From: Raillietiella orientalis
Lineage: Eukaryota
DNA: 64,000 bases
Assembly: GCA_036172245.1 (NCBI GenBank)
Contig: JAYWIR010000008.1
Location: forward strand, 1,426,001 to 1,490,000
Direction: 5' to 3'
Of this stretch, positions 1-64,000 are shown piece by piece; the stretch's first letter is position 1; each line of letters starts with the position of its first letter. The notes beneath the pieces are model-generated. The model made no database searches, was not told the origin of the DNA, and was given only the letters and a program-made list of their open reading frames with translations. A program made the translations under genes and the position numbers.

Positions 1-8892
<8,892 letters not shown>

Positions 8893-25073: not shown

Positions 25074-28000
25074 ATGGCACCATGCAGAAGCAGCAGCAAT
25101 GCGGTGGCTGTGGTGGCGATCCTCTTCCTTATCTGGCATAGGGCGTCCTGTGAGCTGTACACCGCAGTGGCCGAGCTGGAGAAGCTGGTGGACACTGAAG
25201 GGAAGTTGGTGAACCTGCTGGGGAAGTACATCGCCTCCGAGGAAGAGCGGCTGGACAACCTTCGGAGGTGGGTGGAGGCGGCGTCGAGCAGTAGGGGGGA
25301 CAACCTTCCTTTTCCTTTCCCCTACCCCTGTTTCGTTTTTTTGTCACCCTCTCGGTGTTGCATCCTTCCACCCTTGCCGCTTTCCGACCTTGGGGAGAGG
25401 ACAGTGGTGGTGGGCACTCGACCCTCTCGTCATTCCGTTTCCCCGGGCAGGTTGGAGGGGCAGCTGTCGTCCCTGCATGAGGAAGCCTCCGACTCCCGCT
25501 TCCTTGCCAACCCCGTCAACTCCTTCTTGCTCGTCAAGAGGTTGACCCGTGACTGGAATCGCCTGTGGGAGATGATCGAGACCAACCACAGTGCAGGTAT
25601 TGGACTGGGAAGAGGAGGGACGATAGGGGCCAGTGGCCCTGCTAGGAGTTTTCGCCAGCGTGTCCAAGGAGCTTCCATTCCCCGACGAAGAGGATCTCAA
25701 GGGCGCAGTGGTCGCCCTGCTGCGCCTGCAAGACACGTACAAACTGAACGCGTCACAGCTTTCCCGGGGGGTCCTCAGCGACTCCAAGACCCACAAGCAG
25801 CTGACCGGTAAACAGCGCTGGGCTTCTGGCACGATCCCCGGTTTACCTCCTTCGCCACAGCTGCCGACTGCTACGAGCTCGCCCGGCAGGCGTACTTGGC
25901 CCAGAACCACCACCACACGGTCCTTTGGGCAGAAGAGGCCCGCAGGAAATGGTTCCAGGAGTCGGACAACGAGACCGACCTCCTAGCAGAGATCCTGGAG
26001 CACCTGGCGTTCTCCTTGTACAAGACGGGTAAGGGACGAGGGGAAGCGGTGGGGGGGGGGGGCAGTAGAGGCGGACCCGACGCGCATCTCCTCTGGGGCA
26101 GGTCGCGTAGAGGAAGCCCTGCGGACCACGGAGGAACTCCTTGCCTTGAAGCCGTTCCATGAGGTCGCCCGCGGCAACATAGCGCACTACGAGAGGATGC
26201 TGCAGAAAAGGGGCGAGGACGGGGGCGTCGGCAGGGTGGCTCCTGCGGAAGAGGAGGTTGTGCAGGTGGAGCAGGACCTGTACCACGCCCTCTGCAGAGG
26301 CGAGACTACCGCCAGCGACCGCGAGCTGGCCAAGCTTCGCTGCCGCTATTTCCACGGGTACCATCCGTTCCTGCGGCTGGCTCCCGTCCTTGAAGAGGAG
26401 GTCTTCGCTCACCCTCGCATTCTGGTATACCGGCACTTCCTATCCGACTCCGAGATAGAAACCGTCAAGCAGCTGGCGCTACCCAAGGTAGGGCGAGCCT
26501 TCTTGAAAGCGGAGGGTGCTCCGCCCCCACTCCTCCCGCCCTTTTTTCAATCCGAGGAGGGCTCTTACTGGGTAGGGACGCTGGTAGCGCGTTTCGGGGA
26601 AGACTGGGGAGGGACCCTGCCGAATCCGGGGAGATCGATTGCCCGTGGGGTAAAAACAGAATCCCCTCCCCTCCCCCACCGTATAGATTCTCCTCTTGCT
26701 TGTGCTTTCGGTAGAAACGATCGTCCCAGGGACAGCTTTTCCGGGTGGCTGTGTCCTCCCTATGGAGTTTTCCAACGAAGAAAAGCACACGGCTGTATGC
26801 CCAATTATTATTATTGGGAGGGACGTCCCTACTTTAAAATCGCCATTACTGCGACTGCTTTAAATACTGCCTTAACTGCTATTTTCGTGGTCTATAATGT
26901 TACTGCTCTTGATAGCAGCATTAATAGTAGCAGTAGGACCAAGATCAGCTAAGCACTGTTTTTATTGGTAGTATTCCTACTGCTGCCTACTACTCTTGCT
27001 TACATGCTCTGTCGACTGCGTTTATTTGCACTAGTACGAGTATTACTACTGTCATTGCTGTTACCTTTGCTATCATTACTGCTGCTGTTAGTTGCAATTA
27101 TTAGTGCCGCTAACACGATCACGTTTGGTTGTTGCAGCTGAAAAGAGCCACGGTGCAGAACCAGTTCTCGGGAGAACTGGAGACGGCAAACTACAGAATA
27201 AGTAAATCCTCCTGGCTGAAAGACGAAGAGCATCCAGTAGTTTCCAAGGTAGATAGATATCAGCCACCTCGCTTTCCCCCCATTTCGCTGTGATGAAATT
27301 CAAGAAACGGAATGAAGCGTTTTCGAGTAAATGATGACATTTTCAACATTCCTCCAGATATCCCAGCGCGTTGAAGACGTGAGCGGCCTCAACATGCGTG
27401 CATCGGAAGAACTGCAAGTTGTGAATTACGGAATCGGTGGTCACTACGAACCTCACTTCGATCACGCCCGAGTAAGCCGATGTTTGTTATGGATTTTTCG
27501 TTTCCCTTCCCCTTCCCCCCCCCCCCTTCCTTCCTTCCTTTTTTTTTTGGTAAATAAGAAATGTTGGCATTTGTTTGATCTTCATCTTCTGAGAGCAACG
27601 CTTTGAATGTGGAGACTTGCAGAATGCACTTCGCGAATGTCTCGGCAGTGTGTCGAAGCTGATTCTCATCTTTTGATTAGGATTTGTAAGTCAGCCATTC
27701 TTACCTTTGTGGATGCAAAAGAAGAAGAAAACAGAGCGAAAATTCTCATTGCTGTTTTTGCGAGTGGGAAGAAAAATTGATGAACGATGGAAAGCATTTC
27801 ACTTTGCATAGCATTTAGGATTGTATGCAATAATGTTGTTTGTGTATATCCATGTATATTTTGTGCATGTATTCACGCAGCTTTTTATTACTTTTGTTTC
27901 TTCCTCTAGTCATCGCGGTAAAGCATCTTCGTAACGATTTTAAATGTTGACTTGTATTTATGTTTGAAATGAAAGAGCATAATCATTCATATCAGTTAAT

Positions 28001-39328: not shown

Positions 39329-39582
39329 CCACAAGCCAGTTATCCTGTGGTAACTTTTCTGACATCTCTTGCTCAAAACTCATGATCTGTGCGCAAAGTC
39401 AAAAGGATCGTTAGGTCTCGCTTTCGCGGTCCGCATTCGTACTGAAAATCTGGATCAAGCCGGCTTTTGCCCTTCTGCTCTACGCGAGGTTTTTGTCCTC
39501 GCTGAGCCGGTCTCAGGACACCCGCGTTAGCTTCTGACGGATGCACCGCCCCAGTCAAACTCCCCACCTAACACTGTCCTCG
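39329..39582 (-). pseudogene. Dispersed 28S rRNA fragment (domain V region)
   Basis: Minus strand reads GACAGTGTTAGGTGGGGAGTTTGACTGGGGCGG...GAGCAGAAGGGCAAAAG...GATTTTCAGTACGAA...GTCAGAAAAGTTACCACAGGATAACTGGCTTGTGG, conserved LSU sequence. One G is missing from the conserved CAGGGATAAC, and the flanks do not read as rRNA. Confidence 0.93.
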
Positions 39583-40548
39583 GTTTTCGTGAGAGATCCA
39601 ACTGGCCCGCGTCGGAGGCTTTGCAGTTAAGGCTTCCGCGCGTGGCACCATGCGTCGCGGGTTCGAATACTCCGGCAGAAACTGACGCCACTGCGTCGTT
39701 GGGTTCCGAGTTTCTCCTGCAATGGCGCTGGTTGGCCGAAACATTCGGGCGTGGCAACGGCGGTGGATTAAGTCGGAGGCCCCCGATGAAGGCAGGAACA
39801 ATGGGAGTCGACGTTTGGGTCCTTCCAGGAATCAAGGAATGGGGAGTTCCCCCTCCGGTCGCGGACCCCCCTCACAGGGGGGACATCTCCGGTTTCAAGA
39901 TGGAGCAGAAGCCTTCACAGGCACCTATCTAGTTGTTTAACGGAGCGGACCTCCTCCGAGTCGCTGCCTCTCCTGAAGAGTGCAAGGAAGCAAGCGAGAG
40001 CGATTCCCTGCGGGAAGCTGCAGCGCCCCTTCTGAGTTTCGGAAGCGTCCCTTCGGGGTTCTCTTCAGAGGAGTGAACAGGAGCGGTTCCCTTGCGGGTT
40101 CCCTCCGGAGAAGATGAAATGGAGAGGACAGCCCTTCCCATTAGCGGGGTGTCCCTCCGGAGAGAATGAGGAACGAGATTCCTTTCTGGGTTCCCCTTCG
40201 GAGACAACCAGGGTGGGAGTGCGATCCCCCGTCCCCAAGCGTGAGAGGAACGGACTCCGAGCCTTCCCGGATTCATAAAGCGGACCCCCCTTCCGGGGTG
40301 TTCCCTATCTTGAAGAATAACACGCATCCCGAAATCCCGGGTGGCGTGGAACAGGGGCCACGTGCGCCGCGAGGCACGCGACTGGCTCTTGAGGTACTTA
40401 GCAAACCAAAAAAAAAGAAACCTGAAAAAACTGGAAAAAAAAATGCTGGAAAGGAAAAAACAGTGGAGACAGAGAAGAACCCAAAAGGATTTCCATCATC
40501 CCTAAGCCAATAGTAACGATCTCCTCGTGGGGTCTCTACTCCGAATGC

Positions 40549-40579
40549 ACGAAAACTGAGATGAGATCTCAGTTTTCGT
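40549..40579. repeat. Perfect 14-bp inverted repeat, 3-nt loop
   Basis: acgaaaactgagat-gag-atctcagttttcgt. Confidence 0.85.
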
Positions 40580-41749
40580 TCTCGGGCCAATTGGAGTGGT
40601 CATCCAGCTGGGGGCGTGATGTTTCGCGGATGCACGGATCAGAGTGTCCGCCGCCGAACTTGAACTCACCGGGCCGGGAGGCGCTGCAGGCAACCGTGTA
40701 GTGTGCTTGGCCTGGTGGATTCCGGAGGGGTGGGCTCCGCTTCAGCTCTCTGAAGGCTTCTCCCTCCCCCAGCAGCAGCTCCAGCATCGAAAATCTTCCC
40801 TCGATTTCCGAGACCGTTCTTGGGAAGGGCCGGCTCCCAGCCACTGCGGCACGGTTCCCAAACCGAAACCTTCAATGCAAAAGACCGTTCTCCGCGAATC
40901 AAAGATGACTGCATCTCGAGAAAACCGATCCTGTTCCCGGATAAGTCGATTCACGAGAGCTTTCTCAGGTTCCCTCCACCGAGATGATCGAAACAGCCGG
41001 CCGTAGAAGGGAACTGAAGACTACTCTCCTGAGGACAAGGCCTTTGCCTACAAACCTTGAAATAGACGACCCCTAGCCCGAACTCAAAAATCGAGTCAAC
41101 CGCAGATTCCTAAGAGAAAGGTCCCCTCGTTCTCCTCAGCTTTGGCTTTCTCTGCAGTTTCATCATCTTTAAGATTCTTCTCTCTGAGGCGCAGAGTGGA
41201 TGACCGCTGCTGCTTTGTTGGAGGCCGTGTTCCAGCCAGATCAAAGAGCTCGTGGTCTTGTGTTTACCCTGAGAGACGAAGCTTTGCACTCAGTCAAGCT
41301 GAGACTCTCTTTTATCCCCCCTCTGCCCCCTCCCTTCCCCAAAATTAGAAGGCGGAAAGTTCGCTGCTACGCGGCACTCAGATTTCAAGAAGTGAAACCG
41401 AAACACGGCTTTCGAATCGGCTACGTGGAAAGACAAAGGCAGTTAAAGGGAGAGACAATATCCCCTCCCTTTAACCGATAAGGTAAATGAATGAGGGAGG
41501 GAAGGAATGGAGGAGAACCTATCAATTGTGGCGCTTCTTTTGGAGACCTCGTGCAACATAAGCGTCATCCTCCTTCGCTTCTCCTCGCGGGAGGTGCCAT
41601 TCTGCCTCCCGCATTCTGCATCACGGAGGAGGCAAGGCGAGGCTCGAGTATGCCCTTCTTTGCACCTTTGTTGGTATTGTCACTCAGCGGGACACCACCA
41701 CCATCCACCTGACGTGACACAGGATCACCATCGGGGTAGCAGGATAAAG

Positions 41750-44700
41750 TCCGTCGCGAGTGAAGCAGAATCGCCGCTACGACTCCCTCGGGATGTCTCC
41801 GCAGTAAAGCAGGGCGTCTCCAGCTCCTCCGAAAATGATTGCGATCCACAATCGCGTCACGGGAACGCCCTCGCCTCTTTCGCAACCGGTCCTGTCCGAG
41901 AGACGCTTCCCCTCTCCAGCGGTGCTGACTCATGTTGGGTGGGTATCCATGGACCAACGCAACGTGCGGTCACTTGGAGGGAAAGGAGGCGAAGACCGTA
42001 TGAGTGGGGAAAAAGAATGTGCTCCACCTCATCTGTTGTTTTCATCCAAAAGCAGTCCTTCAGGAGAATGCGCAGCGAGCTCACAGCTGGCGTTGGCATT
42101 TCGTGCACAGCCCCCACGTGATGGCGTGACGGAAAGGCATCTCCCCGGGAGAAGCCAAAGCGGAAGCCTTCGCGTCTGCTCTGCCAGCCGGCACAGCTAA
42201 TTTCGCGGTAGGACTCCAGTAGCTGATCCCTTCTGAAATCCACGGAGTCTCCCGCACACTTCCTTACTCCAAAAGAAGTGTCGCTCGGGGGCGCCATCGG
42301 GCAGTATCTCGATCGTGCACGCGCTGCCGTAAAAGGATCCGGAGAGAAAATGCCGATGGATCTGACGAATTTTGAACCCACCGTCGACAGAGCTCTCAGA
42401 AGGCAGGATTTTTCTCCGAGGCCTCCGGGAGGACTTGGTCTCCGGGCTGGACCATGAAGTTGGTCAAGTTGGACACTCAGCTGGTGACTACGGAGCGAAC
42501 CTCATCAATGCATTTGCCGAACGGAACTCCTTGCTTTCGGTTTCTGCTCCCATCCCTCAACTTCCTGTCTCTAGCGTATGTGGAAGTCTCTCTAAGGATG
42601 ATGAATACTCTCTCAGTTTGAGGGATCAGCAAAGAAAGACGCATCTTTGAGCTGCTTTTGTTCACTTCTAAGCACGGAGGGGAGGGGGAAACGTCACGTT
42701 TCGACTCGTTACTCCCCGTCTTCGTTTTGATTCGACGGGATGGATGCAGGAAACTGTGAAATTGACCCATCGGCATATCGACCACTCAACCACTTTAAAA
42801 ATCAGTGAGATCAGATTTTGCTCACTTCATCTCCATTGCCAAAAAGGTTCACTGCAACCGAATCACATCCTGGAAAGTGCGGGAGAGGCAGGAAAGGCTC
42901 TTGAGTTAATCTGCTCCTGCCTCCGCTTCATGGATTTAGGAAACCAGAATGAGTTTGGGCGTAATTTCCTGGAAATTGAGTATCTTGGCGCTAAGAATCC
43001 TGGATCACAGTTTCTCGGAAATCCTCCAAGTGAACCTCCGAGCCCAGTATTCCATTCCTCCTCTCTCTTTCTTTCTCTCCCTCTCTCTGATGGCATTCCA
43101 GTTCGCTTAAAGAAAAAGAAGTTCATGAACGTCAAAGACTTCTGGTATCATTATTTCAATACTGGTTTCTAGGGAAAGGGAAGCATCGAAGAGAGCACAC
43201 CTATCTCTGCTCCTGCTATGGCAATCAATAGCGCAGCAGAGCAGACATGGAAAAGCTTCGAACCGATTTTTTTTCCAGCAGTCATTCTCCCATTTTCCCC
43301 TGCTTTCCTGAAGTAGTTGCTGCTTGCTCCCTCCATACAAAGAAAAAGCTGGTACAGCTCTGCAAAGAACACCGGCATTCATATACAAGGATTCTACTAT
43401 TTGTGATCACCATCTAAGCACATATTCCTGTATTTTGTGCAATAATTTCGAACTTCAATCCCCCAAAAACTGGAGATTGAGATTGTTACACCTTCTCGTC
43501 ATCAGTTACCAGCCTCATCTTGTCGTCTTTGGCTGATTATCGTGACGTCATCTGATCTCCATGTCGTTGGCTCATCTCAGGGGCGTCGGCTGATCATGTC
43601 GATGCCTGTCACTGCATGGTCAGCTCATCTTACCAGCCTCTGGTAAAGTGAAAAACCGCAAAACTACTCTGTTGAAATAATTCGCAACATCGAGAGTGAC
43701 TATCTTAAGATATTAAAATGCACATGTGTTATTAGTTACGCTACTTAATTTTATCGAATTTAGATTCATTTCTTATCTTGGCAATACAAAACCAAGCTAC
43801 TTAATTTTTTTTTTGTAATATTTCTCACGTAAATTCAGAGGGAGGAACTCTTGGTGAAATGCCCGAGACTGCCTGGTGTAGAAGAAATCCATGATTTGTG
43901 TCTCTAGACTACATTCAAATTTATGACTATCAGACACTCATTTTAGTGTATTCTGGCTTGGCAGTATATGAATGAATGAGTGCTGGCAGTATAGTATTAA
44001 TGAATTCTTCATTAATTAGCTTTCACGACAATTGCTAACACCTGTGAAAACTAATTCGTCAAAACTTTACCTGTAAAAACTACTCAACTACTAGCTTTCC
44101 TCTAACCTTTACTACCTGTAAAAACTTTTTAATTTGCCAGCACAAGCTGATCTGCTATTGATCATAATCTGGATCAGAATAGGTACAGTGAAGCCAGAGC
44201 AAATTATTCTGAGAAATTGGTATGCATGTCGGCATCTGTGAAATTCATCCAGCGACTCATTGATCATTAAGCACCTTAAAAAATTCCTGATAGCACATGT
44301 AGCATGATTTCTTACCATTTCAAGACGTTTTCATTTCAAGAGATTAGGACATTAGGACAGTGATTTGGTTGCCATAATTCACATAGACAGTTAAAAACAC
44401 AAAAAAAAATCAAAATCAATCATTCAGTTTATTCGTTCATTTTTCAGATTTAGTTTTCCAAACTACGAATTCAAAATTTATGCCTTTCTGTCACAGTGCC
44501 ATCCTATTATTCCGTCTTAGATGCAAATGCATATTTCGGATTCCCAGCTTAATTTCTTTTAAACAAGGCTTCATTATCTTGTTCGAAGCAACGTGGTACC
44601 CCTGTGGAAATATGATGTGGAATGTTCCACACGTTGCATGCATGTTCGTATTTTGTCGACATGGCATTGGATTTTATGGATTGAAATTGAATGTAAGCCT

Positions 44701-46400
44701 TAAATAGCTTTGAAGACTTAAACCTACTGGAAATCCATTCTCTCAAAGCAGTAACGGTGGATGTCAACGATTGCTCATTTCGCTTCTCAAATTTTCGAAT
44801 TGAAAGATTCCCTGTGGGCGTCTGATGTGTTGAGTATCTCGAATTTCTCCCCAGTTCTTCTCGTACTTGTGATCTCAGGAAACGAGCTCACTCAAGTGTG
44901 CTTGACTTTCAGACTTATTCTCTACGGGTAGCGTGTAGATGAAAAAAACATGTAGACGTGTTGAATTGAATCCGACATTGCAACGCTCGGGACGCAAAAA
45001 GAACAGAATCCTGGATCTGTGCATGGAATAGTTCTCCGTTAACCTGAACAGGCAGCTTTGTAATTGGACTCTGAATTGCATCCATCATAACTGGATACGA
45101 TTCGGAGTGGGTTCGGGACACACTTTTGGGTTTCCCTGCATCTGCGGTAGGGCCTGAAGGATCTTTGCTCCACGGAGAGCACGTTTAGGAAAAATTCTCT
45201 TCCGATGATGCCATCATCACAGCATGCTGGTGCTCACACAGAAATGCAGTTGCTGTTCGATTCGTTCTTGGAGAGCCCCACTTGTTGCGTTGGAATCGCT
45301 GAAGGGTTGGCTCGGCGTTGCTGTATGGATCATTCAGTGGCATCGGACTCACTTCGGTTGGATGAAGCTGCATCCCAGTAGTACATGAGGCAACCTCGTC
45401 TCGTGCTAAGTGCGTGCTCAGCACTTATCCCCTTGTGTTCCGCTGTTCCAAGTTTCGTTGGTCATCGCGGTTATAAATATCGGGATTGTGACACTCCTGG
45501 TGGCAGGTTCACCTACCCAGAAATACCCATCCAAGAATACAGGACATCTTCTGGATCCACTGACGATGCCGAAGCATCCGTCCCATTTCTCTGCATGCCT
45601 CCTTGCATCTCGAGGAAGAGAGCCGCCGTCACCTGTTCTCGCCTAGTCTTAGAGATAGACCTGGTGCGAGGAAAACTCCCCTAAGACAATCGCCCTTTGC
45701 TACCTTCTGTTAACCCACTCGATTTCCCTGGATTCCAGGAGCGTCATCGAGTACGGCCGCATTCGGCTTCCCAGCAGGACTGTGGTGGAATAGAATCTGT
45801 CTCCCGAGCAGATGAACTCTTCTTGTTCCTTCTGCAATTACCTTGGAAAGAAGGATAGCTTCTCTCTTGCCCTCTTGTCACGCTCCTGCACCCCGTAGCT
45901 CCGATAGCAAGTCCACTTCGCCATAGCGATCGCCTTTCTTGCTGCGAGGATAAGACCCTTGCTTGGAATTCTGCGCGAGGGTGCAGGTAGACTGCGCTTC
46001 CTGCTGCAAACCTCGCTGGTTCCTCATTGGGTCTAAGAGGAATGCAAGAGCATCTCTCCACAGAACCAGGGGGGAGCAGTCTCTACATTCCTCAAGGAGT
46101 CGAAAGAGCCTCTCCGGCCGGATCCCCCTTTCTCCTCGCAGCTCTCTCTTGCTGGATGGATTTTCTGCAAGCCGAAGATTGGATTGGAAAAAACGGTGGC
46201 TTCACGACCCGGCATCGAGCTCACAGACGTGTTCCATGAGGCTTCGTGTTCGGAGAAGACTGTCAGTTCCTAAGTAAGACATATTCTCTCGTGGTTGAAA
46301 CTCTTCGGGACTTGTCCTCCTGAGTACATCTGATGGATAGGTCTTTGAATCGTAAATGTTGCCTGATGCCTGCATTTCACGAAATAGGATCTTGCTATTC
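41750..46400 (-). mobile_element. Highly decayed Ty3/Gypsy element pieces (gag-, protease- and RT-connection-like)
   Basis: Minus-strand peptides in gag-PR-RT order: PEEFQPRENMSYL and LRPNEEPARFAA (gag-like, ~46300-46000); PITKLPVQVNGELFHAQIQDS (retropepsin-like V.VNG....AL.DS, ~45060-45000); FSRGDAFPSRHHVGAVHEMPTPAVSSLRILL (like ISxxGIxPDPxKVxAIxEMPxPxxVSELRSFL, ~42150-42060). Interrupted by AT-rich DNA. Confidence 0.35.
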
Positions 46401-48376
46401 TTGCTTTTCAACGACACAGCCACAGCAGCCTTGCTCGTCCTCTATCTTCTCGTGAAAACTTTGCACATTAATTTGATTAGATGTTTGGTTAAAATACTGC
46501 AATGCGCTGAAAGACTGATGCCTCGTGCCGCAATATTAGAAAGGGGATGCATGAACTACAGAAATACTCATTTGTTTTTTTCCTACTAATCCTAAAGTTT
46601 TTGAAATTCTTCCAAGTCATAATTTTTTTGATTATTTGCCACAGGTTCCATTTCAAGGCTACAGTGATTTTTCAACTCTGAGGAAGGCTCAAGATTCAAG
46701 CGGGTAGTTATCACGAAACTGGTGGCATTCGTTGTAATAGTAAAACGCGAGTAGCAAAGAAAATATTAAATCGCAAAAATGTGGAGATCGTTGGCAGTTT
46801 TCACGACTGATGCTCTCGCGAAGAAGAGACTAAGCGCAGTGATGCAGTCAGTGATGTAGTCCCTAAACAACGAGTGTTTTGGAAAGGGTATGTGTTCAGA
46901 ACAAACATATGTGATAGAAATCAGGTGCATTCCCCATTGTACCAGATACCGCATCGGAGATTCTTCTGTGAGTTGGTGGCCATTGCTCACTCTTGCGTGT
47001 GTCACGAAGTGACATTGGAGTGAGAATTACAGTACTCTGTGATTCTTCCCGTCATTAATTAGTGACATCAGAATTAGTGATATCGCTTCCGCGAGGATCT
47101 TTTTTTTTTGTGTGTGTCTCATCTTTTTATATTTTTGAAGACACCAAAGCTAGCAAATTCAAGTTTCCAGTCATTTCAACTTTTCAAAAATCTCAAGTCT
47201 TTGGTGATGGCCTTTTTGTCTTGTACGTTGGGAGTTCACACTGATGTGCAGGCCACTTCCGTCAGTGGTTGAATGTTCATTTGCCTGGTAACAAAGTCTG
47301 CGGACAATGCCAGCCTGTGTTCGGGAAAAACATCCTTCCGTTCATCTTTTTCATCTTCCGGAAAAAGCATCCACGTGTTTATTTTCTCACAAGCTGCGAG
47401 CGATTCTTAGACCAGGGCGCGTCTACGCTTAAGGCAGTAAGAATTGATCTCCGAGCTGCGTATGGCACGGATCTTCCGAATTTGTGTATTGTGTGTGAGT
47501 TTGTGTGTGTTTTTTGCTTTCTTCTATCGAAAACTCGCTTTTGAAAGCAGTTTTGACAACTACGAACAGATTTAAAAGAAGACAATGAACCTAAGATTAG
47601 CTGCATATAATACAACAGTTTCTTTGCATCTCAGTCAATTGAATATGAATCATATAATGTCAAATTATTGTCACTAAGAGCAGTTTTGTTTTTTGTTTTT
47701 TTTTTAAGAAAGAAAGTTTGCTTCAAGTATGATTGCTTGAATACTTGAATCAAGCTTTCTTTCTTTCTGTCTTCCGAATCCATTACTGCTTTAATGGATT
47801 TCGGGCGTTTTGTCATTTGTGCTAAGATTCTAAAGATACCTTCTTTTCTGCTTACCCTTTTTTAGAAGTGACCAACTATTCGTTATTTAGAAATCTTCAA
47901 AATTTTTCCGTTTTTTTTTTCCTTCCCCCCTTCCAATTTGCAATTTGAACTGCGCATTAGCAGACGGTATTTAAACCGATATGTAGTTGTTATGTAATTC
48001 CAATTGTGTAGAATTTTGCCAGAATAAGGATATCAAGTAGAATTTCCCATCAAAACTAGTAGAATCTCTATTTTCCCGTTCGGGTTGTGACCTGACTACC
48101 GCCGGCTTAGTTGTCTCCGTGTTTGCCAAGAGGTTTCGATTCATAAGCTGGTAATGCTTTTATTATCGAAGAATTGATCAGATGGGTGTTTTAGATTAGC
48201 ATAAAATCTTTCGTGTGGTGCATCGGTTAGCGAATATGATGCAAAGGTGATGCTGTGTAAATGCTCTATTTGAAAGGTGGCATTCTCCCCAGTATCGGTC
48301 CAGAAATCCATAATAAGATGCCGATGACTGCATGAAACTGACGTTTATGTAAAGCCGGAATTGGTTGTGATCTGGA

Positions 48377-48553
48377 ATGGGTACGAAACATCGACATAAT
48401 CAATCGTCCAAAAGCTTAATTACTTCCGGTATTTCGTTGGATTTGATAAAATCGTACATACAGTCGAATAATTTAGAAAAGCTAACTAAAGAGGAATTGC
48501 GTTACTTTCTTCAAAAAAAAGGCCTACAAACGACAGGCAAAAAAAAAGTTATG
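48377..48553 (+). CDS. Exon encoding most of a SAP domain; probable 5' coding exon of VMP1
   Basis: MGTKH...NNLEKLTKEELRYFLQKKGLQTTGKKKVM then donor GTATGT (phase 0). Matches the SAP consensus L.KLTV.ELK..LK.RGL.TSG.K. In-frame TGA lies just upstream of the ATG. Confidence 0.75.
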
Positions 48554-49587
48554 GTATGTAAATGCCGAAGATCACGAATTTAGTAGCAGTATAGTGCGTT
48601 TCTGTTTCATAAGAAAAAAAAAAAAATAGAAAAAGAAAAGAAAAGAAAAAAAAAAAAAAAAACGTGGAGTTTGAAGTAGCATGTTCACAGTTGGATTTCT
48701 CAAGTGTTTGTTTATGGTTGATGTGTGTTCATCCTAAATCAGCCTCACGAGTTGATTTCATCATGCATGCATAAGGCAGATCAGTTGGGTTATATTTTGA
48801 ATGAATAATTTTGTGTTAAACTAGCATGGCACCGAATTGAGTCTGTACATTAAAATGCATTCTTTGTTTTGCAGTCTATTTTCACATAGTAACAAATTTT
48901 TTAAATGCGTTTTTTTTGTGTTGGAAATGCATGCAAAATGTTTGCCAAAATAATGTGAAGAATAAGAACATTTCAATGTTTCAAATTTATTTAAGATATT
49001 TTATTTCTGCTATCTATCAGAACATATTTTCGTTTTGTGGTGAGTTATTATTTGGATATTATGTTATAGCAATACTGCTTACACCATTATTCTGTAGAAA
49101 ATGATATGCTTTTAAATTCTTCCCTGATTTTTATTTATTTTGTGTAGAAGCTGTTGTTCACTGATTAACTTTTAAGCATATATATTCCTGTTTGTTATGC
49201 TTCGTACGTAAGCTTAACATTAACTTTTTTCTCTTGTTTTATGATTCCTGCAAGGAAAATTTGTTTCCCTGTCTATTTGTAAAGTCTGCCTGCTAAATTT
49301 ATTTTCAAATACTTCAGACCTGAGGATTTATGATCAAAGAGTAGTATTTTCATGTTCCATAATATTTGTGTCAAAGTTTAAGATTGGGTTAAGGTTTTTC
49401 AAGTTGTTTGTTAGTTTTGAAGTTTATTTGAGAATCACAATACTTACAAAAAAGTTCAGAATGTGTCTTATGTTTGTTATATTTGTTAATATAGAGATAT
49501 TGAATGATAATTTTAGATAATATTGTTGTATAATATTGTGTATGCATTTTAATTGTGTACCTTTTTTTGTTTTTTTTTGGTATTTAG

Positions 49588-51146
49588 ATAAGAAGATTGT
49601 TACACTCTGAGTTCATGAACGAAGAAAAAAGCACTGTGATGGCGATAATCAGCAAAAAAAAAAATCTTGCAGAACAGTCCAATGGAAATCTTTTACCTCT
49701 TCCACCTCAGGACCAAAAAGCAAAAAAGCTTACAGAAAAACATGAGGAAAATTTGGTCCTTTGGAAACGCCCTATCTGTACTTTATACTACTGCTGCTGT
49801 GAATTAGGAATCTTACTTAAAAAAGGTTTTGTTAGGTGAGTCTCTGCCAGTTGATTGCCAAGCTCATTTTTTTTTGCACAGAACTTGGCAATGTCGACGT
49901 TGTATTCTACCTCTTCTTTTTCTAGTCATTGGTGTGATAGGCTTGGCCCAGCTTGAGGGCAGACATCAGAAAGTAAGAATTAATAGCTCAAAAAAAAAAA
50001 AAAATGTATATTTACGTATATTTATGACAACAGGTTCTGCTATCTCTGCAAAAAACCATTGCATTAGCTCTGTACTGGATGGGGCTAGGAATTCTGTCTT
50101 CAGTAGGGCTGGGTACAGGTTTACATACATTTATACTGTATTTGGGCCCACATATCGCCAGAGTAACAATGGCAGCATATGAGTGTGGTACTACCAGTTT
50201 TCCTGAACCACCTTACCCTGATGAGTATGAAAACTGCATTTTTGATTTAATAATCTGTTTTCAAGAATTATTTGTCCTGCTGTTTTGGGAAGTACTGTTT
50301 CCATATGGGCTGTGATGAACAAGGTGCGCTTTGAATCCTTCATGTGGGGAGCTGGAACAGCAATTGGAGAACTACCACCCTATTTCATGGCCAGAGCAGC
50401 TAGGCTTTCTGGAGGGGAGATTAAAGAGGAAAAAGAATTAGAAGTTTTGGAAGATTTGGACAAAAGCAACTCCAAGCTAACACACTTGGTAAATAGAAAA
50501 TGTAGTTTGATCATCACTGCAATTTAGTAGTCTATAATGGACCAAATGAAGTTGATGATGAAGCAGACTATTGAGAAAGTGGGATTCTTTGGAATTGTTG
50601 CTTCTGCTTCAGTAGGTCTTTGCTTTTAGAAAATTATTATGTTGCTATCTTCAGATTCCAAATCCTCTATTCGATCTGGCAGGCATCTTGTGTGGCCATT
50701 TTTTGGTTCCCTTTTGGACATTCTTTGGAGCAACACTGCTAGGGAAGGCTGTTATCAAGATGCATTTGCAGAAGATGGTTGTCATTGTGACGTTTCATAA
50801 GCGCTACTTGGAAAGTCTGCTGGGTTGGTTGGGGAAACTGCCAGTGGTGGGTGCTCGTTTGCAAACATCACTCAGGAAGATTCTGGAGAGCCAGCGTGCC
50901 AAGTTACATCAGCCACTGGGTGAACCAGTTCCTACTGTCAGTATCTAATTTTTCTTTTTTTTTTCGGTGTCTACTCATGATAATTTGTAGGCAGAAGCAA
51001 GCTGGTTAGCAAAAACATTCGAGAAACTTGTCTTAATTATGGTGATTTACTTTTTGATGTCCATTATAAACTCTCTAGCCCAAAGTTATCAGCGACGCCT
51101 TCAGGAAGATGCAAGTGGCCCAACAAAGTTGAAGAGAGTGACTTAA
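49588..51146 (+). CDS. VMP1: Vacuole membrane protein 1 (DedA/VTT-domain ER scramblase), multi-exon
   Basis: Exons 49588-49835, 49882-49972, 50034-50224, 50266-50488, 50531-50611, 50655-50936, 50991-51146. Hallmark motifs [113 protein letters not shown]. Internal ATGs at 49615 and 49639. Confidence 0.96.
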
Positions 51147-54100
51147 TTATCATATGAACAATAACAAATTATGGATTGTTCTGTCACTTTTGCAGAGGAG
51201 TTTAGTTTGCCATTCATGTTGTTTAGATGTGATGGCACCCAGCACCATTATTATGAATGCAGAATTCATTTACCATGTAAAAATTTATTGTGCTGTGTAT
51301 ACATATGTGTACATGGTCTACATGAACATTGCATTTCTAGTAAGTTTTTTGCAGTAAAGAACACAGACAAGCCAAACTTGGCAATAGAGAAAGAAATATT
51401 TATGTTGTCAGGAGGATTGAAATATAATTTTTTTTCCTCCAAACTTGTTCGAAAAGCTACGAATCCTCAGTTTTGCCTGCTGGCATCTGTGCTAGGAGGC
51501 AGACTTGCTAGCATCAGTTGTTGTTTACTTTCATTGTTTTGTTGTAGTTGAAAGGGCATATGAAACAAAGAAACCAGTTCCTTGTGAGTTCCCAGCATTA
51601 CATTCGCCTGCGTGGGTTAAGGGTGATGGATGGCTGAAGAATATTAAATGCTTTCCAACTTGGGTTGTGTTCTAGCTGTTTATGCTGCTGCTGATTATCA
51701 GTCATTGCTTGAAAGTCACTTGAGTGTGCGATTAGGAAGCAGGCAGGACGTGTCTTTTGATCGAGCTGTTGCTTCACCATTCGTTGCCTGTAGAAGCAAA
51801 GCTTTGGTCCAGTGCACGATTATTTTTACTTGGGCAAGAGCAGCGCCCTAGGTGTGTTCACTCCGAGGTGTGTTTTCGAGTGTTTGTGTGTCCATGCATC
51901 ACCGCGGTCTGCTGGGCAACTCGGTGCCCTCTGGGACGTGAGTGGCCGGACCCGTGAAACGGGATGAAAGTCGACCGTCCGAGGGTGGGAGCACGCGGGA
52001 CGCCAAGGCGCACACCGTGCACAGCGGTGCAAAGCGTGGCAGCAGACGGGCGAAGGCAATTCGCTCGCAGTTTGTATTTTCTGAAACAAAAAGGTTTGGG
52101 GGCGGTCCATTCGGGGACGATTGATGTGTCCCAAACCACGCTGGAGGAAACAGCAACGGAAAGTTCGTTGCGCGGGTGGCGTTCCTTCTGCCGAAGTGAA
52201 GTGGGCGTAATGCTGCACATTTGTTGCATCATCCTCTGTGAAGTACGTGCTGGCGCCGTTTCCAGACGGTTCTCACCGTATCTGTACGCTACGCTTTCGT
52301 CCCCCAAACCCAAAGTGCTGATTCCCCTGAATATTTGGGTAACTGGGGCAACAGCCAGGTTCCTCCGTGCGATTAGGAACGGTGCGCCGTAGCTGCGAGA
52401 ACCAACTTGGGAGATGAGAGCATCTAGAAGATCCTAGAATTGCCTTCCAAATCGGACTTGCTTCTCCCCCCAAACCCCAGATTTATTATTATTATCATTG
52501 TAAGGTCCGTTCATGTTGGAAATGCAATTGTTCACCGGGTGGAACACTGTTATGCGTTTGTCTTCAATCACACGGAACGCTTAATTTTGCACAAAAGGCT
52601 TTAATGGAAAAGGATTTGCGCGAGGCAGACCTTGTTGAAAGAGAGTACTTTCTTTGTGTTCCTCACGAATCGCTTGCATCTCAGAGCCGCTCAAAAGGCC
52701 GTTTCGAACGAATGAGCTCATTCCACGGCATGAGCTCCGAAAAGCGTCCACTTACCAAACGACCTGCTTAAATTACCAAGCGTTGGAATGAATTGGGGGC
52801 AAAACGAAGTACTCCCCCTCCCCCCAAAGGATTCTTTTTGCTCCTTCTACCTATTGTGTCGGCGCATGAACTCCAGTTACGAACAATTGTTCCTTTTTCG
52901 TGAAGATTCCTCCCGTGCGCAAATCCAGGATTTTCAAGGGAGCGCTGTTGGAATCTACCTCTTTACTACCGGTGACTCTCTTTTTGAAAAAGGCAACGAG
53001 AGCAAAAAAAGAAAAAAGCTGGACGTGGAAATTTTTAGGTATGTCAGGAAAGCACGCAGGTACCGCCATTTTCCCAGCGATTATCGAGGACCTAAAGCAC
53101 TAGTTGTGCTCATTAGGAAGCAGCTGGCAATACTGCAGTTAAACTTCAGTCAAGTTATACTTCAGTTAGTGATTCAGACAGTTAATAGTAAAGCTATGTT
53201 TACTATTTCAAAAGCCAGAAACAGTCTTGTTCGTTGAAAGCTTCATAAATCTGTTTTAACATACTGCATTTGCCATGCCACTCATCCACCGTTACTGAAG
53301 CAGCGCTGCAGTCAATATGATTTACGAGTTGTTCCTTCCGTGGTCGTATTTTCGCTTATGCGAGCAGCTTGCTGGCGTAAACATCATCCCGTTGATAAAA
53401 TCCGTGTATAGAAAGTGGGAATGAGAGGGCCGAGAGGAAGAGTGGATGTCGTCGTGTCTTTTCAGGAATCTTAGGATGATTCGCATTTCCAGGAGTCCAA
53501 GAACTGCTGTCTTCCGGGGCACTCCAAGGAACCGCGGACGGAAATCCCGGATCCATCCCAAGAAGGGTGGATTTGCGAGCTTGTCCCCCTTTAAGCCGTG
53601 TGTGCGCGCGCCCCAAGCGGGAAGTGCATCCCACGCCCTGTGGAAATCCCCCAGTCCTTTCTTCCGAGCGGTTTTGCCACGGGGCGGTCACTCCGGTCCG
53701 ATTTATTTATTTATTTTTTTCATGGCTGGACATGCCGTCGTTGCCTAAGAAGCTCCTGTCGATTGTTTGTCTTTGGCCCGATCCAGCGCGATGGACAGCT
53801 CCAGCGCCTCGGAGGAATGACGTTTCGTATTCCGTGTTGCTCTTTCTTCGTGTCTGAGCTTGCCTTGTCGTTATTTTCCTCTTGGGCATTTTTCGTTCAA
53901 TCACTCTGCTGCCGTGACCCCTCTGCGGCTTCCACGCAAGTCATGCCGGCTTTACGCCGTGCACGTGAGATACCCGAGGATGCAAACCCATTCGGAGAGG
54001 TGACAAGTCTTCTCCCGTCTTGTTGTGACCGGTAGTGGCCAGGCGTTTCTGTTGGGTGGACCTAACGCACGCTCGAGAGTGTGCACAAGTCGGAAAGATG

Positions 54101-59286: not shown

Positions 59287-61866
59287 TCAAGAAGGAAAGA
59301 GTTTGTTCCTGGTACGATCGGGAGCCGTTTCTGGGAAGAGGCAACACCTTGAATCCAAGTTTTCCAACGTTCGAACATCAGGAAAGTTCAGTACACTACT
59401 CTGACTAGTAGGAAAGTGACTTCCTTCCCTGTGATAGCACAAACGGCAATTTTCTCTATCGGGAACCGCTGCACAGTGGCCTTCGTGTTGATTAGGACAC
59501 TCGGCCAAGTTTCCTTCGAAACAAATGTTGTTAGGTGGAAAAAGCTGCACATCGAAGCTGTTCCCAGCACTTTGGGAGCTACAGGTGCTACCATACTTCA
59601 AGATGCAGCTGCCATCTTTCTCTGGACGCTTGCACATTGCGTCTGCAGAGCACCTACCCATCACCTGTTCCGATGAAACACCAGAAGACAGTGCATCATA
59701 TCTGTTCCTCAAGGTGTGATAATAGATCTCTTCATAGATATGAGGCGGAATCAGTTCGAAGCACTGAGGAGGAAACATGGTACAGTTGTTGTCTCCAGAG
59801 TATTGCCCGATTTCGGGGACACACACACTTTTGTTCCCGGAAGGACGATGGTGGTGACAGCCACCACCCATCTGTTGGTCAATGATACATCCGTGCTCGG
59901 GGGGTATGTGGACTGCGGGATAATGCACAGAGCTCTCCACTCCAAGGGAACCCTTCTGAGGTATTAGCTTGCCTAGCATAGCGTTTTCTGCGCTGCATCC
60001 GCTAAACTTGGGTTCATGCAAACCAGAGTAGAATCTGCACGTCTCCTTGTGCCCACCGTAGCACTTGATAGTGTACGACGATCCACATGACTGACTCATT
60101 TGTGATGTGGCAGCCGAAGAAGAATCCAGAATTTCTTTCTTGCCGAAGAGCTCACTTCCATTGAACAGGCGAAGCAGACAGTCAAAGCCTTTATTCCGTC
60201 GGGTATTTTTATCAAGAGGGAAGAATCCAAGAGACCCGACAAACAAAAGCAAATATGCTAATAGTACTTCGAGGACACGGAGTGAGAACTGATATATCCA
60301 CCACGGCCACGGTCGCGGGTACACAGGTGGAATTTCCAGATTAACCACCTCAAAAATACCGTACAGCAACGTAAGGGATATCACAAATGCGAGTATCGAC
60401 GATGCCAAAGTAATATTAATAGCCATCGTCAACCTCGAATATGAGGGTGCGGGGCCAGGAGCTCCTAAATGGCTCGAAGCAAACTTTTTGAGAATCAAAT
60501 TGCGCTTCATACGGGAAATGCTTCTTCTAAGCTTTGGGTACATAAAACAGTAAACTGCTGCCAAGATGATGAACCACAGTATGAGGAGCAGATGGCAGAT
60601 CTTGGCCAGAACGATGGTTTTTGGAACCCAGAGTTGCAACACATTTCCAAGGACTGTTAGCACGACATACAGGGAACTGCTGATGATGAGTATCGGGGAA
60701 CAAAGCGTGCATCGATCCAAGAGCTGCACTTTGGTAACAGACAGCACAGAATGGAGAACCGTTGTGAAGGCAATCAGCAGGCATGGGAGACCCAGATTCA
60801 AGATAAACACGACCAGAGCATGTGAGCAGCTTCCTTTCAAATTGTACGCATCATGGAAGAACATGGCTGCACGTGCAATACCGAAAATGAATGTGATTGT
60901 ATTGAGCACTAGATACGTTGCACCTGTAACCAAACTGGATTCTGAACGGAACACCACATTATAAGCAGAGTACACTGACAGCAGCACAAATAATACTGCC
61001 ACGCTATACACGTGGAATTCCCATGCCACACCCCACTCTTTGATTGCTTCTTCGTATAGGGGCAGCTGATTCCAGTGAATCACTTTGCGTTCAGTGACAT
61101 TCAACTCGGCTGCGGGAGGCCTTTTCTTCTCAGAGTAAGAAACTGTGTCCGCCAGAACCCATTTCGGTTTGTCATGCTCCTTTTCGTATGCCACCTCGTT
61201 TGCATCCAAATAAGAAAACGTTCGTTCAGAATCACTTATTGCAACGTTTATTTTTGGAACAGTGATTCCTGCCACTGCTTCCGAGTACACAATGGGAGTT
61301 GGTAGGAATACGGGAAAATCTGCATGAATGCTTTGCTTATTATCAGCATTTAAGGATGGAAACAAGGCATGCACTGGTGCTTGGGTTTCCAATGGTTTCT
61401 GAGAAATGACCGGAGGCAACTCCTTGGGATCATCGTAAGCATTTACGGAAGCGTTCCTGATATCTTCTGACGAGGGTTCTCCAAGACTGTTTGCAGCATC
61501 TTTGACAAACCAATTTAAATCCGGAAAAGGGGTGAGGAACTGGGTGGGTCTCGAACTCGGTTTGAAATCGACGGAGTCCAGAGGAATTTTCTGGAAAACT
61601 TTTGGGGAGTTGATGAAGATCTTGTGTGTTGAAGAAGATGCATTTGGCAACGGCTCTTGCAACTCCGAAGATTTCAAAGGGGAATTCGAGTTGTTGCTAT
61701 CAAAGGCGACTTTGTTGAAGATGGCAGCAATACGATCTTCCAGATGAGACTGCTCTATTCCTGCTTCCCTGGGAACCCCAAGAAGACCGGAGGGAGAATC
61801 TTGCTGCTGTTTTATACACAAACATTCAAGTGTGACGAAAGCGAGAATAATGATCAAGGCTTTCAT
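59287..61866 (-). CDS. Proline-rich transmembrane protein 3/4-like multipass membrane protein (859 aa, single coding exon)
   Basis: Long intact ORF. Signal peptide MKALIIILAFVTLECLC, Pro/Ser-rich ectodomain, ~7 hydrophobic helices starting WGVAWEFHVYSVAVLFVLL and ending PWPWWIYQFSLRVLEV (motifs I recall from the PRRT3/PRRT4 family), then a Cys/His/Ser-rich tail. Confidence 0.8.
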   Translation of the reverse strand: MKALIIILAFVTLECLCIKQQQDSPSGLLGVPREAGIEQSHLEDRIAAIFNKVAFDSNNSNSPLKSSELQEPLPNASSSTHKIFINSPKVFQKIPLDSVDFKPSSRPTQFLTPFPDLNWFVKDAANSLGEPSSEDIRNASVNAYDDPKELPPVISQKPLETQAPVHALFPSLNADNKQSIHADFPVFLPTPIVYSEAVAGITVPKINVAISDSERTFSYLDANEVAYEKEHDKPKWVLADTVSYSEKKRPPAAELNVTERKVIHWNQLPLYEEAIKEWGVAWEFHVYSVAVLFVLLSVYSAYNVVFRSESSLVTGATYLVLNTITFIFGIARAAMFFHDAYNLKGSCSHALVVFILNLGLPCLLIAFTTVLHSVLSVTKVQLLDRCTLCSPILIISSSLYVVLTVLGNVLQLWVPKTIVLAKICHLLLILWFIILAAVYCFMYPKLRRSISRMKRNLILKKFASSHLGAPGPAPSYSRLTMAINITLASSILAFVISLTLLYGIFEVVNLEIPPVYPRPWPWWIYQFSLRVLEVLLAYLLLFVGSLGFFPLDKNTRRNKGFDCLLRLFNGSELFGKKEILDSSSAATSQMSQSCGSSYTIKCYGGHKETCRFYSGLHEPKFSGCSAENAMLGKLIPQKGSLGVESSVHYPAVHIPPEHGCIIDQQMGGGCHHHRPSGNKSVCVPEIGQYSGDNNCTMFPPQCFELIPPHIYEEIYYHTLRNRYDALSSGVSSEQVMGRCSADAMCKRPEKDGSCILKYGSTCSSQSAGNSFDVQLFPPNNICFEGNLAECPNQHEGHCAAVPDRENCRLCYHREGSHFPTSQSSVLNFPDVRTLENLDSRCCLFPETAPDRTRNKLFPS

Positions 61867-64000
61867 GATTTATTCTTAATCATCATTTCGCTGGAAGATG
61901 TAGCCTGGTGCCTCATCTTAATAAACAATCGTGTCAAACAAGCACAGTCGGGTCGAACTCATCTGCAGCCATGATCTCTAGGGAATCTGGAAAAAGATTT
62001 TTCTGATTACTCCTCCTCATCCGTGAATGCATTCGCATTTTTAAAGACAACGCAGACAACGCAAAACTGCCGTGACAGTAAGGAAAATCCGTGCATTTTC
62101 TCAAACGTAAACAGTCCTCGAAACGTAGATATTGAAAGCAACGAGGGTGTCGTTCCCACTTTTTCTTTTTCCTGCCAAGGCTGTAGTATCTCATGTGCGC
62201 CGTTCTTGGTCGGCAGCTCAAAGATCAGTTCAGTCCCTAGCAATCAACTGATGTGCATGCTTGTTTGGAGAGAGACTCAGCAATGCATTCTTTGGAATGA
62301 AACGGATGAGGGATGCTGAAAATAGGGGCTAATGTACGAAACATACATGGAAGAGTGTTGCGAGGTAATTTCTTGAATGCACTATAACAGGCGGCATGAA
62401 TAGAAAAACAGGGAATTGGAACCGCGGACAGTCTACTCTTAGAAATCAGCATTTGTTTGTCAGCAAATATGCCACTTTATCTCATGAAGCATAGATGACT
62501 TTCCTATCTATCTACTTGAAGATCCATTAGTACCTTTAAAAGAATACCAAAACTGACCAATTTAGCCATTGCATAAAGATACGAGGAGCAAATTTCTGAA
62601 ACAAACAAAGAAAGAAAGAAAGAAAAAAAAACCCAGTAAGATACTCACATATTTGCGCTTTTTACAACGTGTTTTCAAAAGCCCAGGAGAAAGTCTGATC
62701 GCAATCTAATCTGATACCACCATCTTGCGCTACACCAAAAACCTATCTACAGAAATCAACGCATTAGCATATCTGCGAAAAAGAAAAGAGTTGGGGTATT
62801 CTGGGCTAACAACTAATAATGACACGCAAGACTGACAAGCCACGGAAATTCGATGTTTGGGAAGAACAAGATTTATTTCTCCAGGGTAACTAAAAAAGGA
62901 AGAGAGAGAGAGAGAGAAAGAAGTTTCAGCAGCACGCTTCCAGATTTCAATAGGAAATGCAGTTTCTGGGTACATTAATCAATGAACATAAGTGATGAAA
63001 TTTATGATAAAATCTGCGCAAAGAATAATGAGAAACTGGTGTGGATTCCAATGAATGGAAACGAAACTTACGTTGAATGGGATTTCTTCGAATAAATTAG
63101 GGAAGTTACACAATGGTCTGTAAACGTATTAAGTGACGTTCTTGTGCATCTGTGGAATTTATCAGATACGAGCAGGAGGAAAAAAAAAAAAAAATTCACC
63201 GAGGCTTGTGATTCTAAACATCAGGACGAAAACCGAATTTAAAACTGCATCTATTCGAACAAGTGTCGAGAACCAATAATATCCACGTTAAAAGAAAATC
63301 GACTGCAAGGAAGAATTGGAAGATGCGAAGGAAAAAAAAAAAAAAAAAAGGTTGGAAAAAAGTACGAGGTCACATCCACGGAGCTGCGAAACGGTGGCAT
63401 TCGTGGAGACATCGCGTAAATGCAACGCAGCCAAAAGATTCGAAAGAGTAAACAAAAACACCGAGGTAAAGGTTCGCACAATGCGTGCTTTACACTGAAG
63501 ACATCAATACCTCTTAAGCAACTTCTGGCTGATTATTAAGATCAGAAGGGATCGTGTTGCCTCTGATTGCAAAAAGGATGGAACAAGTTGCACCAAGGAA
63601 GGGAATACAAATTAATTTTGCGCGGAGACAGGATTCAAGAGTGAATTCGTAAATTTGTCAGTACGAGATTGGATTCCCATTCTTCATTTGGACTGAAACA
63701 TCACTCCTCATTTCTAAACCTCTTAAAAGATTTGGGGAAGGGGGGAGAAAGAGAGAGAGAAAGGGGGGGGGAGGAAAGGGGAGGATAGGAAGAGTTTTTT
63801 TTCTTCTTTTTTTCCATTTTTACGCTGAGATGTTATGTAAAAAATAGGAAAAATCAACTGCAGCAACAATGAATTTTAAGTCTCATGAGATATGAGTTCA
63901 CTAATTGCGATAGGGAAACCATTAACCATCCCATTTCTTATTCTTTGATGCCCTGGCCAATTACATGCGAGGCCTCAAAGGAAGAAGAAGAAGAAGAAGA

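Follow-up and report, generated by a model that had tools for sequence, protein, structure and literature searches.

The VMP1 gene model

We analysed a 64,000-nucleotide stretch of the Raillietiella orientalis genome (contig JAYWIR010000008.1, positions 1,426,001 to 1,490,000), hereafter called the window. Positions 48377 to 51146 probably hold a single gene for an orthologue of vacuole membrane protein 1 (VMP1), whose first coding exon encodes most of a SAP domain. The eight-exon model that we computed from the window sequence has GT-AG introns throughout and comprises 482 codons followed by a TAA stop at 51144-51146, all on the forward strand. The first coding exon (48377-48553) is a 59-codon open reading frame (ORF) for a basic N-terminal stretch and for helix 1 and the loop of the SAP domain. 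Its ATG at 48377 lies in the context tctggaATGG, two codons downstream of an in-frame TGA. The exon ends with GKKKVM in phase 0, at a GTATGT donor. Use of ATG 48377 as the start codon appears likely from the sequence, and a similarly short, basic N-terminus in the Popillia japonica protein described below supports it.

Intron 1 (48554-49587) spans 1034 bp, from the GTATGT donor through a T-rich tract to a TAG acceptor. The acceptor reads tttttttttggtatttag, and the 20 nt preceding it are 80% pyrimidine. The other six introns measure only 41-61 bp (46, 61, 41, 42, 43 and 54 bp, in order). Exon 2 (49588-49835) begins with IRRLLHSEF, in which IRRLL would correspond to SAP helix 2, and remains free of stops through two ATGs, at 49615 in a weak context and at 49639 in a strong one (actgtgATGG), into the VMP1 frame. 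A low-complexity linker and the conserved LVLWKRP region follow, and the exon aligns with VMP1 N-termini. The exon coordinates, peptides, phases, splice sites and stop-free run into VMP1 given in the initial annotation all proved correct when the sequence was read again.

The remaining exons are defined by the gene model and by a full-length alignment with Popillia VMP1. Exon 3 (49882-49972) encodes the first hydrophobic segment, exon 4 (50034-50224) the conserved region GLGTGLHTF ... PEPPYPDE and exon 5 (50266-50488) one further conserved region. They are followed by exon 6 (50531-50611), exon 7 (50655-50936), which includes FWTFFGATL and part of the VTT domain, and exon 8 (50991-51146), which contains the stop codon. 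Exon 7 was recognized by protein search and a weak VTT_dom match; an alternative 3' end is possible 4 nt downstream, with a different acceptor.

Among 1894 candidates from the search with exon 7, 1774 were VMP1-type proteins at E<=0.001, with teleost proteins ~65% identical. Of the best 120 of these 1774 matches, 119 have the VMP1_C and/or VTT Pfam families; 87 are named VMP1, and the rest are hypothetical, unnamed or otherwise named. Scanned as a single exon, exon 7 gave 19.4 bits against VTT_dom (PF09335; E 0.0016, profile positions 85-112 of 123), below the cut-off of 33.9, as expected because only one exon was used. In a local scan, seven of eight full-length fish VMP1s also fell below this cut-off (26.8-30.5 bits), and P0007 reached 36.3 bits. 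The joined model is 52% identical to the teleost protein P0006 over 399 residues (E 4e-146) and 55% identical to P0073 (E 4e-140). The core thus resembles canonical vertebrate VMP1 (TMEM49): model residues 79-477 and teleost VMP1 are 50-52% identical (E ~1e-140) and share the conserved motifs and the VTT-domain segment. In contrast with the window model, the teleost proteins start at a Met near its internal ATGs. Drosophila Tango5 and C. elegans EPG-3 are VMP1 orthologues.

A SAP domain probably split by intron 1

The translation of exon 1 matches the Pfam SAP family (PF02037) over residues 32-59 and profile positions 1-28 of 37, with E 1.7e-5 and 24.8 bits for a gathering cut-off of 23.9, in agreement with the initial assignment of this exon to the SAP family. 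Exon 2 alone has no Pfam match. As the profile match stops at position 28, exon 1 encodes a SAP domain short of its last helix, and its marginal score is expected because the domain is cut there.

The SAP consensus ends in ...G.K..LI.RL. We looked for the corresponding pattern, [LIVM]x[RK][LIVM], directly after AG dinucleotides. Between the donor and the VMP1 ATGs, it is found at one of 63 sites, 49588, and in the whole window, on both strands, at 45 of 7807. We also built two SAP hidden Markov models (HMMs) from 18 Pfam-verified SAP repeats of proteins P0124-P0126, with the Popillia SAP domain added (sapA) or left out (sapB). When exon 1 was joined in turn to the sequence after each AG in 48554-51300, 49588 ranked first of 171 sites with both models. 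Joining at 49588 raised the score of exon 1 by 10.5 bits with sapA (34.6 vs 24.1) and by 4.9 bits with sapB (20.8 vs 15.9), scores to be read with the narrowness of both models in mind, since they represent one repeat family, plus Popillia in sapA. Across both strands of the window, the AG sites scoring at least as high as 49588, itself included, numbered four of 7807 with sapA and 24 with sapB. The pattern and the rankings support the proposal that the SAP domain is completed across the junction. The domain would span about residues 32-68 of the predicted protein, with intron 1 placed after Pfam profile position 28.

Upstream of exon 1, no convincing coding ORF to which it could belong was detected on the forward strand between 40 and 48.3 kb. 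Searches for close relatives of exons 1 and 2 were negative: none of 66 and none of 74 word-sharing candidates scored. Of the 320 stretches that fitted the exon-2 pattern in a metagenome scan, none was confirmed. Exon 1 had four matches among 1.84 billion representative proteins, all of them multi-repeat proteins and none a VMP1. The top one, P0123 (6458 residues), was rejected as a SAP protein, its score coming from 27 copies of a ~229-residue non-SAP repeat (NLEESILREIDDFMEKEILKK...). Comparison of exon 1 with PDB sequences yielded only spurious, His-tag-like matches to its MG.KHRH start.

SAP-VMP1 proteins in other genomes

Among the best 120 of the 1774 exon-7 matches, a single protein combines PF02037 with the VMP1 families. 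This protein, P0003, is annotated as 'SAP domain [Popillia japonica]' and has 487 residues; on re-scanning, its SAP domain was found at residues 40-71 (31 bits). All three Popillia isoforms, KAK9754085.1, KAK9754086.1 and KAK9754087.1, have SAP and VTT. The joined window model aligns to P0003 in a single high-scoring segment pair (residues 31-470 vs 39-482, 42% identity, E 7e-111) that starts at the first SAP residue and is ungapped across the SAP domain and the junction. Exon 1 alone gave 28.5 bits against P0003 (12 of 26 residues identical), with a pairwise E of 7e-6 that is not significant database-wide. The two proteins thus share an N-terminal SAP domain, a linker and a VMP1 core. In both, a short basic N-terminus precedes SAP, and a Met lies a few residues past SAP helix 2 as a possible conventional VMP1 start. 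They differ in sequence, with ~40-42% identity overall.

The three Popillia models P0003, P0127 and P0128 each contain a tandemly duplicated stretch of ~24 residues in the VTT region and an aberrant stretch. They probably hold both copies of a duplicated or alternative exon.

The ESM Atlas clusters nearest to one of the Popillia isoforms that carry a name are arthropod clusters. One has 69 members, with VMP1_C in 88% and SAP in 57%, and another has 80 members, with VMP1_C in 86% and SAP in 66%; their names are 'SAP domain-containing protein' and, for the other, 'vacuole membrane protein 1-like'. SAP-VMP1 proteins are therefore common among arthropod predictions, though not universal. A search of the same resource with the Popillia N-terminus alone gave no usable match. 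The initial annotation knew of no SAP domain in VMP1 and offered a lineage-specific chimera as one of two readings. Neither point fits the three Popillia isoforms and the two clusters.

To these we can add an environmental sequence. A metagenome scan with P0073, which has the ..LQRLGHKM.. motif in common with Popillia and therefore looks insect-like, returned 11 loci. In a six-frame sapA scan of the window and these loci, E<0.01 was reached only by the exon-1 ORF and by one ORF of the locus L009, a genomic contig whose VMP1 exons are 46-50% identical to those of the window. The L009 ORF lies ~1.5 kb upstream of the first VMP1 exon on the same strand and matches Pfam SAP with 36.9 bits (E 2.6e-9, profile positions 2-29 of 37). 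It ends with GNKKDL in phase 0, at a GTCAGT donor. The helix-2 pattern occurs at one of the 107 downstream AG sites. A 75-nt exon starting with IERL, preceded by an 80% pyrimidine tract, can be drawn from that site to a phase-0 end at GTGAGC, and two phase-0 acceptors join it to the VMP1 frame.

The junction peptides are thus GKKKVM/IRRL in the window and GNKKDL/IERL in L009, and these two very distant genomes therefore have the SAP domain divided at an identical codon boundary. Both loci have a SAP exon cut at nearly the same profile position (28 in the window, 29 in L009), a phase-0 GT donor, a next exon starting with I-x-R-L, and VMP1 exons on the same strand. In L009, helix 2 is on a separate mini-exon, the 75-nt one, followed by an intron of ~1.2 kb, whereas in the window it is part of the first VMP1 exon. 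Furthermore, the L009 coding sequence is GC-rich, and its SAP domain begins at residue 5, with no basic leader.

The homology to Popillia SAP-VMP1 and the split layout of L009 support the initial proposal that exon 1 belongs to VMP1. As this layout is common to lineages whose VMP1 cores are only 46-50% identical, a recent fusion of a small SAP gene to VMP1 through a lost stop codon, the other suggestion of the initial annotation, is unlikely. Because arthropods share the architecture, as does at least one further distant eukaryote, the SAP exon appears to be old rather than a local accident. From these comparisons, the SAP-VMP1 fusion is very probably real. We consider a spliced SAP-VMP1 product likely, and it is nearly as likely that the region is a single gene, a VMP1 orthologue with a SAP first coding exon, of the architecture common to arthropods and L009.

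Several results weigh against this assignment. The splice 48553^49588 was deduced from comparison of sequences rather than from transcripts, and the two HMMs that rank it first are narrow. In L009, joining at the proposed junction raised the sapA score by only 3.3 bits (26.6 vs 23.3), with 18 of 919 sites scoring as high, and it lowered the sapB score by 0.6 bits (13.2 vs 13.8), with 343 of 919 sites as high. As the models gave little or no gain, this junction is carried by the SAP consensus and by the pattern test. PF02037 is absent from 119 of the best 120 exon-7 matches (of 1774), mostly teleost VMP1s, and re-scanning nine other proteins (eight long fish isoforms or relatives, and P0073) revealed no SAP domain. 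A third arthropod cluster of the ESM Atlas, with 200 members, has no SAP at the reporting threshold. The six-frame SAP scan of the eight loci that include the VMP1 N-terminal region (L001-L007 and L009) gave a match in L009 only, and in the transcript-like contigs L001-L004 and L007 an in-frame stop lies upstream of the Met. Lastly, the searches gave no close relative of exon 1 or exon 2 in which selection on the SAP exon could show in this lineage.

Two observations concern the N-termini of the SAP-less proteins. The metatranscriptome-like contigs L001-L004 hold four related VMP1 transcripts whose products start with MSGE[AV][KR]M[ST]RRR and have an Arg-rich N-terminus. In teleost VMP1s (P0004-P0122), the N-terminal motif M-A-E-x-G-A-E-G-E-L-P-Q-R-R-L-G resembles the loop and helix 2 of the Popillia SAP domain (T-G-T-K-N-E-L-L-Q-R-L-G). 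We considered whether the teleost motif (..GAEGELPQRRLG..) might be a vestige of SAP helix 2, given its likeness to Popillia ...TGTKNELLQRLG, and rejected this. Over 75 distinct N-termini, sapA and sapB gave ~0 bits, with a maximum of 2.5, while shuffled controls reached 4.9.

Possible roles of the SAP module and surroundings of the gene

In the predicted protein of 482 residues, a linker of ~80 residues would connect an N-terminal SAP domain to the scramblase core of VMP1, which passes the membrane several times. VMP1 has its N-terminus in the cytosol, and SAP is a helix-extension-helix module that binds DNA or chromatin. The SAP helix-loop-helix might thus sit on a flexible tether at the cytosolic or nucleoplasmic face of the membrane. 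By binding DNA or chromatin, it could retain some of the scramblase at the nuclear envelope, whether in the inner nuclear membrane or where the endoplasmic reticulum (ER) re-coats chromatin after mitosis. The basic patches pointed out in the initial annotation might act as a nuclear localization signal. A shorter VMP1 of 414 or 406 residues, lacking SAP, could arise at the ATGs 49615 and 49639, through leaky scanning or from transcripts that begin in intron 1, and we infer that such an isoform may be made.

In a limited search of the literature, we found no publication on the SAP-VMP1 architecture. In some abstracts of the publications that pair vacuole membrane protein 1 with 'SAP', the abbreviation stands for severe acute pancreatitis, and the opening parts of these publications' abstracts mention no SAP domain. 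Mammalian VMP1 is described as a phospholipid scramblase in the available part of PMC8077175, where 'inner nuclear membrane' occurs only within a cited title that is not about VMP1. In the available part of 10.1101/2024.06.07.597858, the term occurs only where the legend of a figure deals with CLCC1 and the assembly of nuclear pores, again not about VMP1. Databases already list SAP-VMP1 proteins under automatically assigned names, and this locus by itself therefore contributes one more member and an observation on gene structure rather than a new kind of protein. The points of interest are the conserved position of an intron inside the SAP domain and the fact that we found no functional study. 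VMP1 has been studied as an ER scramblase in autophagy, lipoprotein secretion and viral replication, almost wholly in systems without SAP. The predicted presence of SAP on the cytosolic N-terminus in many arthropods, in the animal of the window and in another distant eukaryote suggests an unexplored role linked to the nuclear envelope or to chromatin. For annotation, a first coding exon with only three quarters of a domain, placed 1 kb ahead of the rest of the gene, is easily missed, or miscalled as a separate small gene.

What the module does may also have little to do with chromatin. SAP could be joined to VMP1 as a handle for protein-protein contacts or RNA binding, or as a regulatory N-terminal extension that serves, for instance, partner recruitment or turnover; we give this a chance only a little short of even. 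The SAP region is short and strongly diverged between lineages, as the 12 of 26 identities between the window and Popillia indicate. The only solved structure matched by the Popillia SAP domain is that of Hcc-1 (PDB 2do1), or SARNP, a nuclear mRNA-export factor. The match covers both helices (residues 40-75 vs 9-44), with an E of 0.28 that is not significant. Moreover, the portions of the VMP1 literature at hand report ER functions and no nuclear role. On the other side, SAP domains are best known as DNA- and chromatin-binding modules, and a small helix-extension-helix at a nucleoplasmic end recalls the LEM and HeH proteins of the inner nuclear membrane.

This likeness is an analogy only. MAN1, LEM2 and yeast Heh1 and Heh2 carry a small helix-extension-helix nucleic-acid-binding module at the nucleoplasmic end of a membrane protein. 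Unlike VMP1, they are structural nuclear-envelope factors and not lipid scramblases. A chromatin or nuclear-envelope tether is plausible, but we regard this role of the SAP module as rather unlikely.

A broader scenario is more doubtful still. SAP-VMP1 might be the ancestral invertebrate VMP1, with the phase-0 intron that splits SAP kept in the window, in L009 and probably in beetles. The SAP domain would then place part of the ER scramblase pool on chromatin or the inner nuclear membrane, alternative starts would provide the conventional ER form, and vertebrates would have lost the SAP exon. If this were true, a heavily studied protein of autophagy and lipid biology would have an unrecognized nuclear function, for instance in re-forming the nuclear envelope or in balancing lipids between the leaflets of the nuclear membrane.

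Both the tether and the other handles presuppose that exons 1 and 2 are joined. Exon 1 could instead be a separate small SAP gene or an intron-retention transcript ending in ...VMVCKCRRSRI and a stop, with VMP1 produced only from ATG 49615 or 49639. The read-through ORF (48371-48583) indeed matches Pfam SAP slightly better than exon 1 alone (26.4 bits, profile positions 1-29), ATG 49639 lies in a strong context, and SAP-less VMP1 transcripts occur in other organisms. Nevertheless, the read-through product would have no SAP helix 2, which the acceptor of VMP1 exon 2 provides in frame, and no other candidate downstream exon completes the domain. L009 has the same split layout before VMP1, and the annotated Popillia proteins contain SAP and VMP1 in one chain. 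We therefore consider a separate SAP gene or transcript very improbable.

Least probable of all is a SAP ORF that arose by chance, or is a decaying remnant, and from which this organism makes no protein any more. For this reading, no close relatives were found against which purifying selection could show, and exon 1 scores just 0.9 bits over the Pfam cut-off. Against it, a low score is what truncation at profile position 28 of 37 should give, and neither the ATG, the 59-codon frame and its canonical donor nor the helix-2 codons in frame before the VMP1 ATG are disrupted. In addition, the six-frame scan of the 64 kb showed no other SAP-like ORF, and this one immediately precedes VMP1 on its strand, a position that it has in common with the L009 ORF.

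Beyond the SAP-VMP1 gene, the window is a mosaic in base composition, with a guanine-cytosine (GC) content of 30% to 64% in 2-kb windows. An MCM-family helicase gene lies at ~198-8362 on the reverse strand (MCM P-loop domain 196 bits, MCM lid 86 bits, weak MCM_OB). At its 3' end, the ORFs within 198-1610 nearly abut, consistent with very short introns. Exons for a prolyl 4-hydroxylase alpha subunit are found at ~25065-26949 on the forward strand, in a block of 60% GC (P4Ha_N 60 bits; TPR_P4H 22.9 bits, below cut-off). These exons point to an animal genome, and the genes recognized near VMP1 are all of animal type.

A GC-rich block at 39900-46300 (45-55% GC) stands in an AT-rich neighbourhood. 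Each of its strands contains long uninterrupted ORFs in several frames, of which the four longest have no Pfam match, and the block looks more like repeat or foreign-type DNA than like genes. Similar GC-rich blocks, of up to 64% GC, occur at 22-27 kb and 54-58 kb. No tandem repeats at a score >=100 were detected in 38-64 kb. At the edge of the 39900-46300 block, and outside any ribosomal DNA unit in the window, lies an isolated fragment of eukaryotic large-subunit (LSU) ribosomal RNA (39366-39558, reverse strand; Rfam RF02543, 166 bits, model positions 2621-2802 of 3401). Lastly, a single-exon ORF of 860 codons, P0130, at 59290-61869 on the reverse strand, has no Pfam family at E<=0.001. Its product starts like a signal peptide (MKALIIILAFVTLECLC) and includes a long region that looks extracellular, a multi-pass hydrophobic core and a Cys- and His-rich tail.

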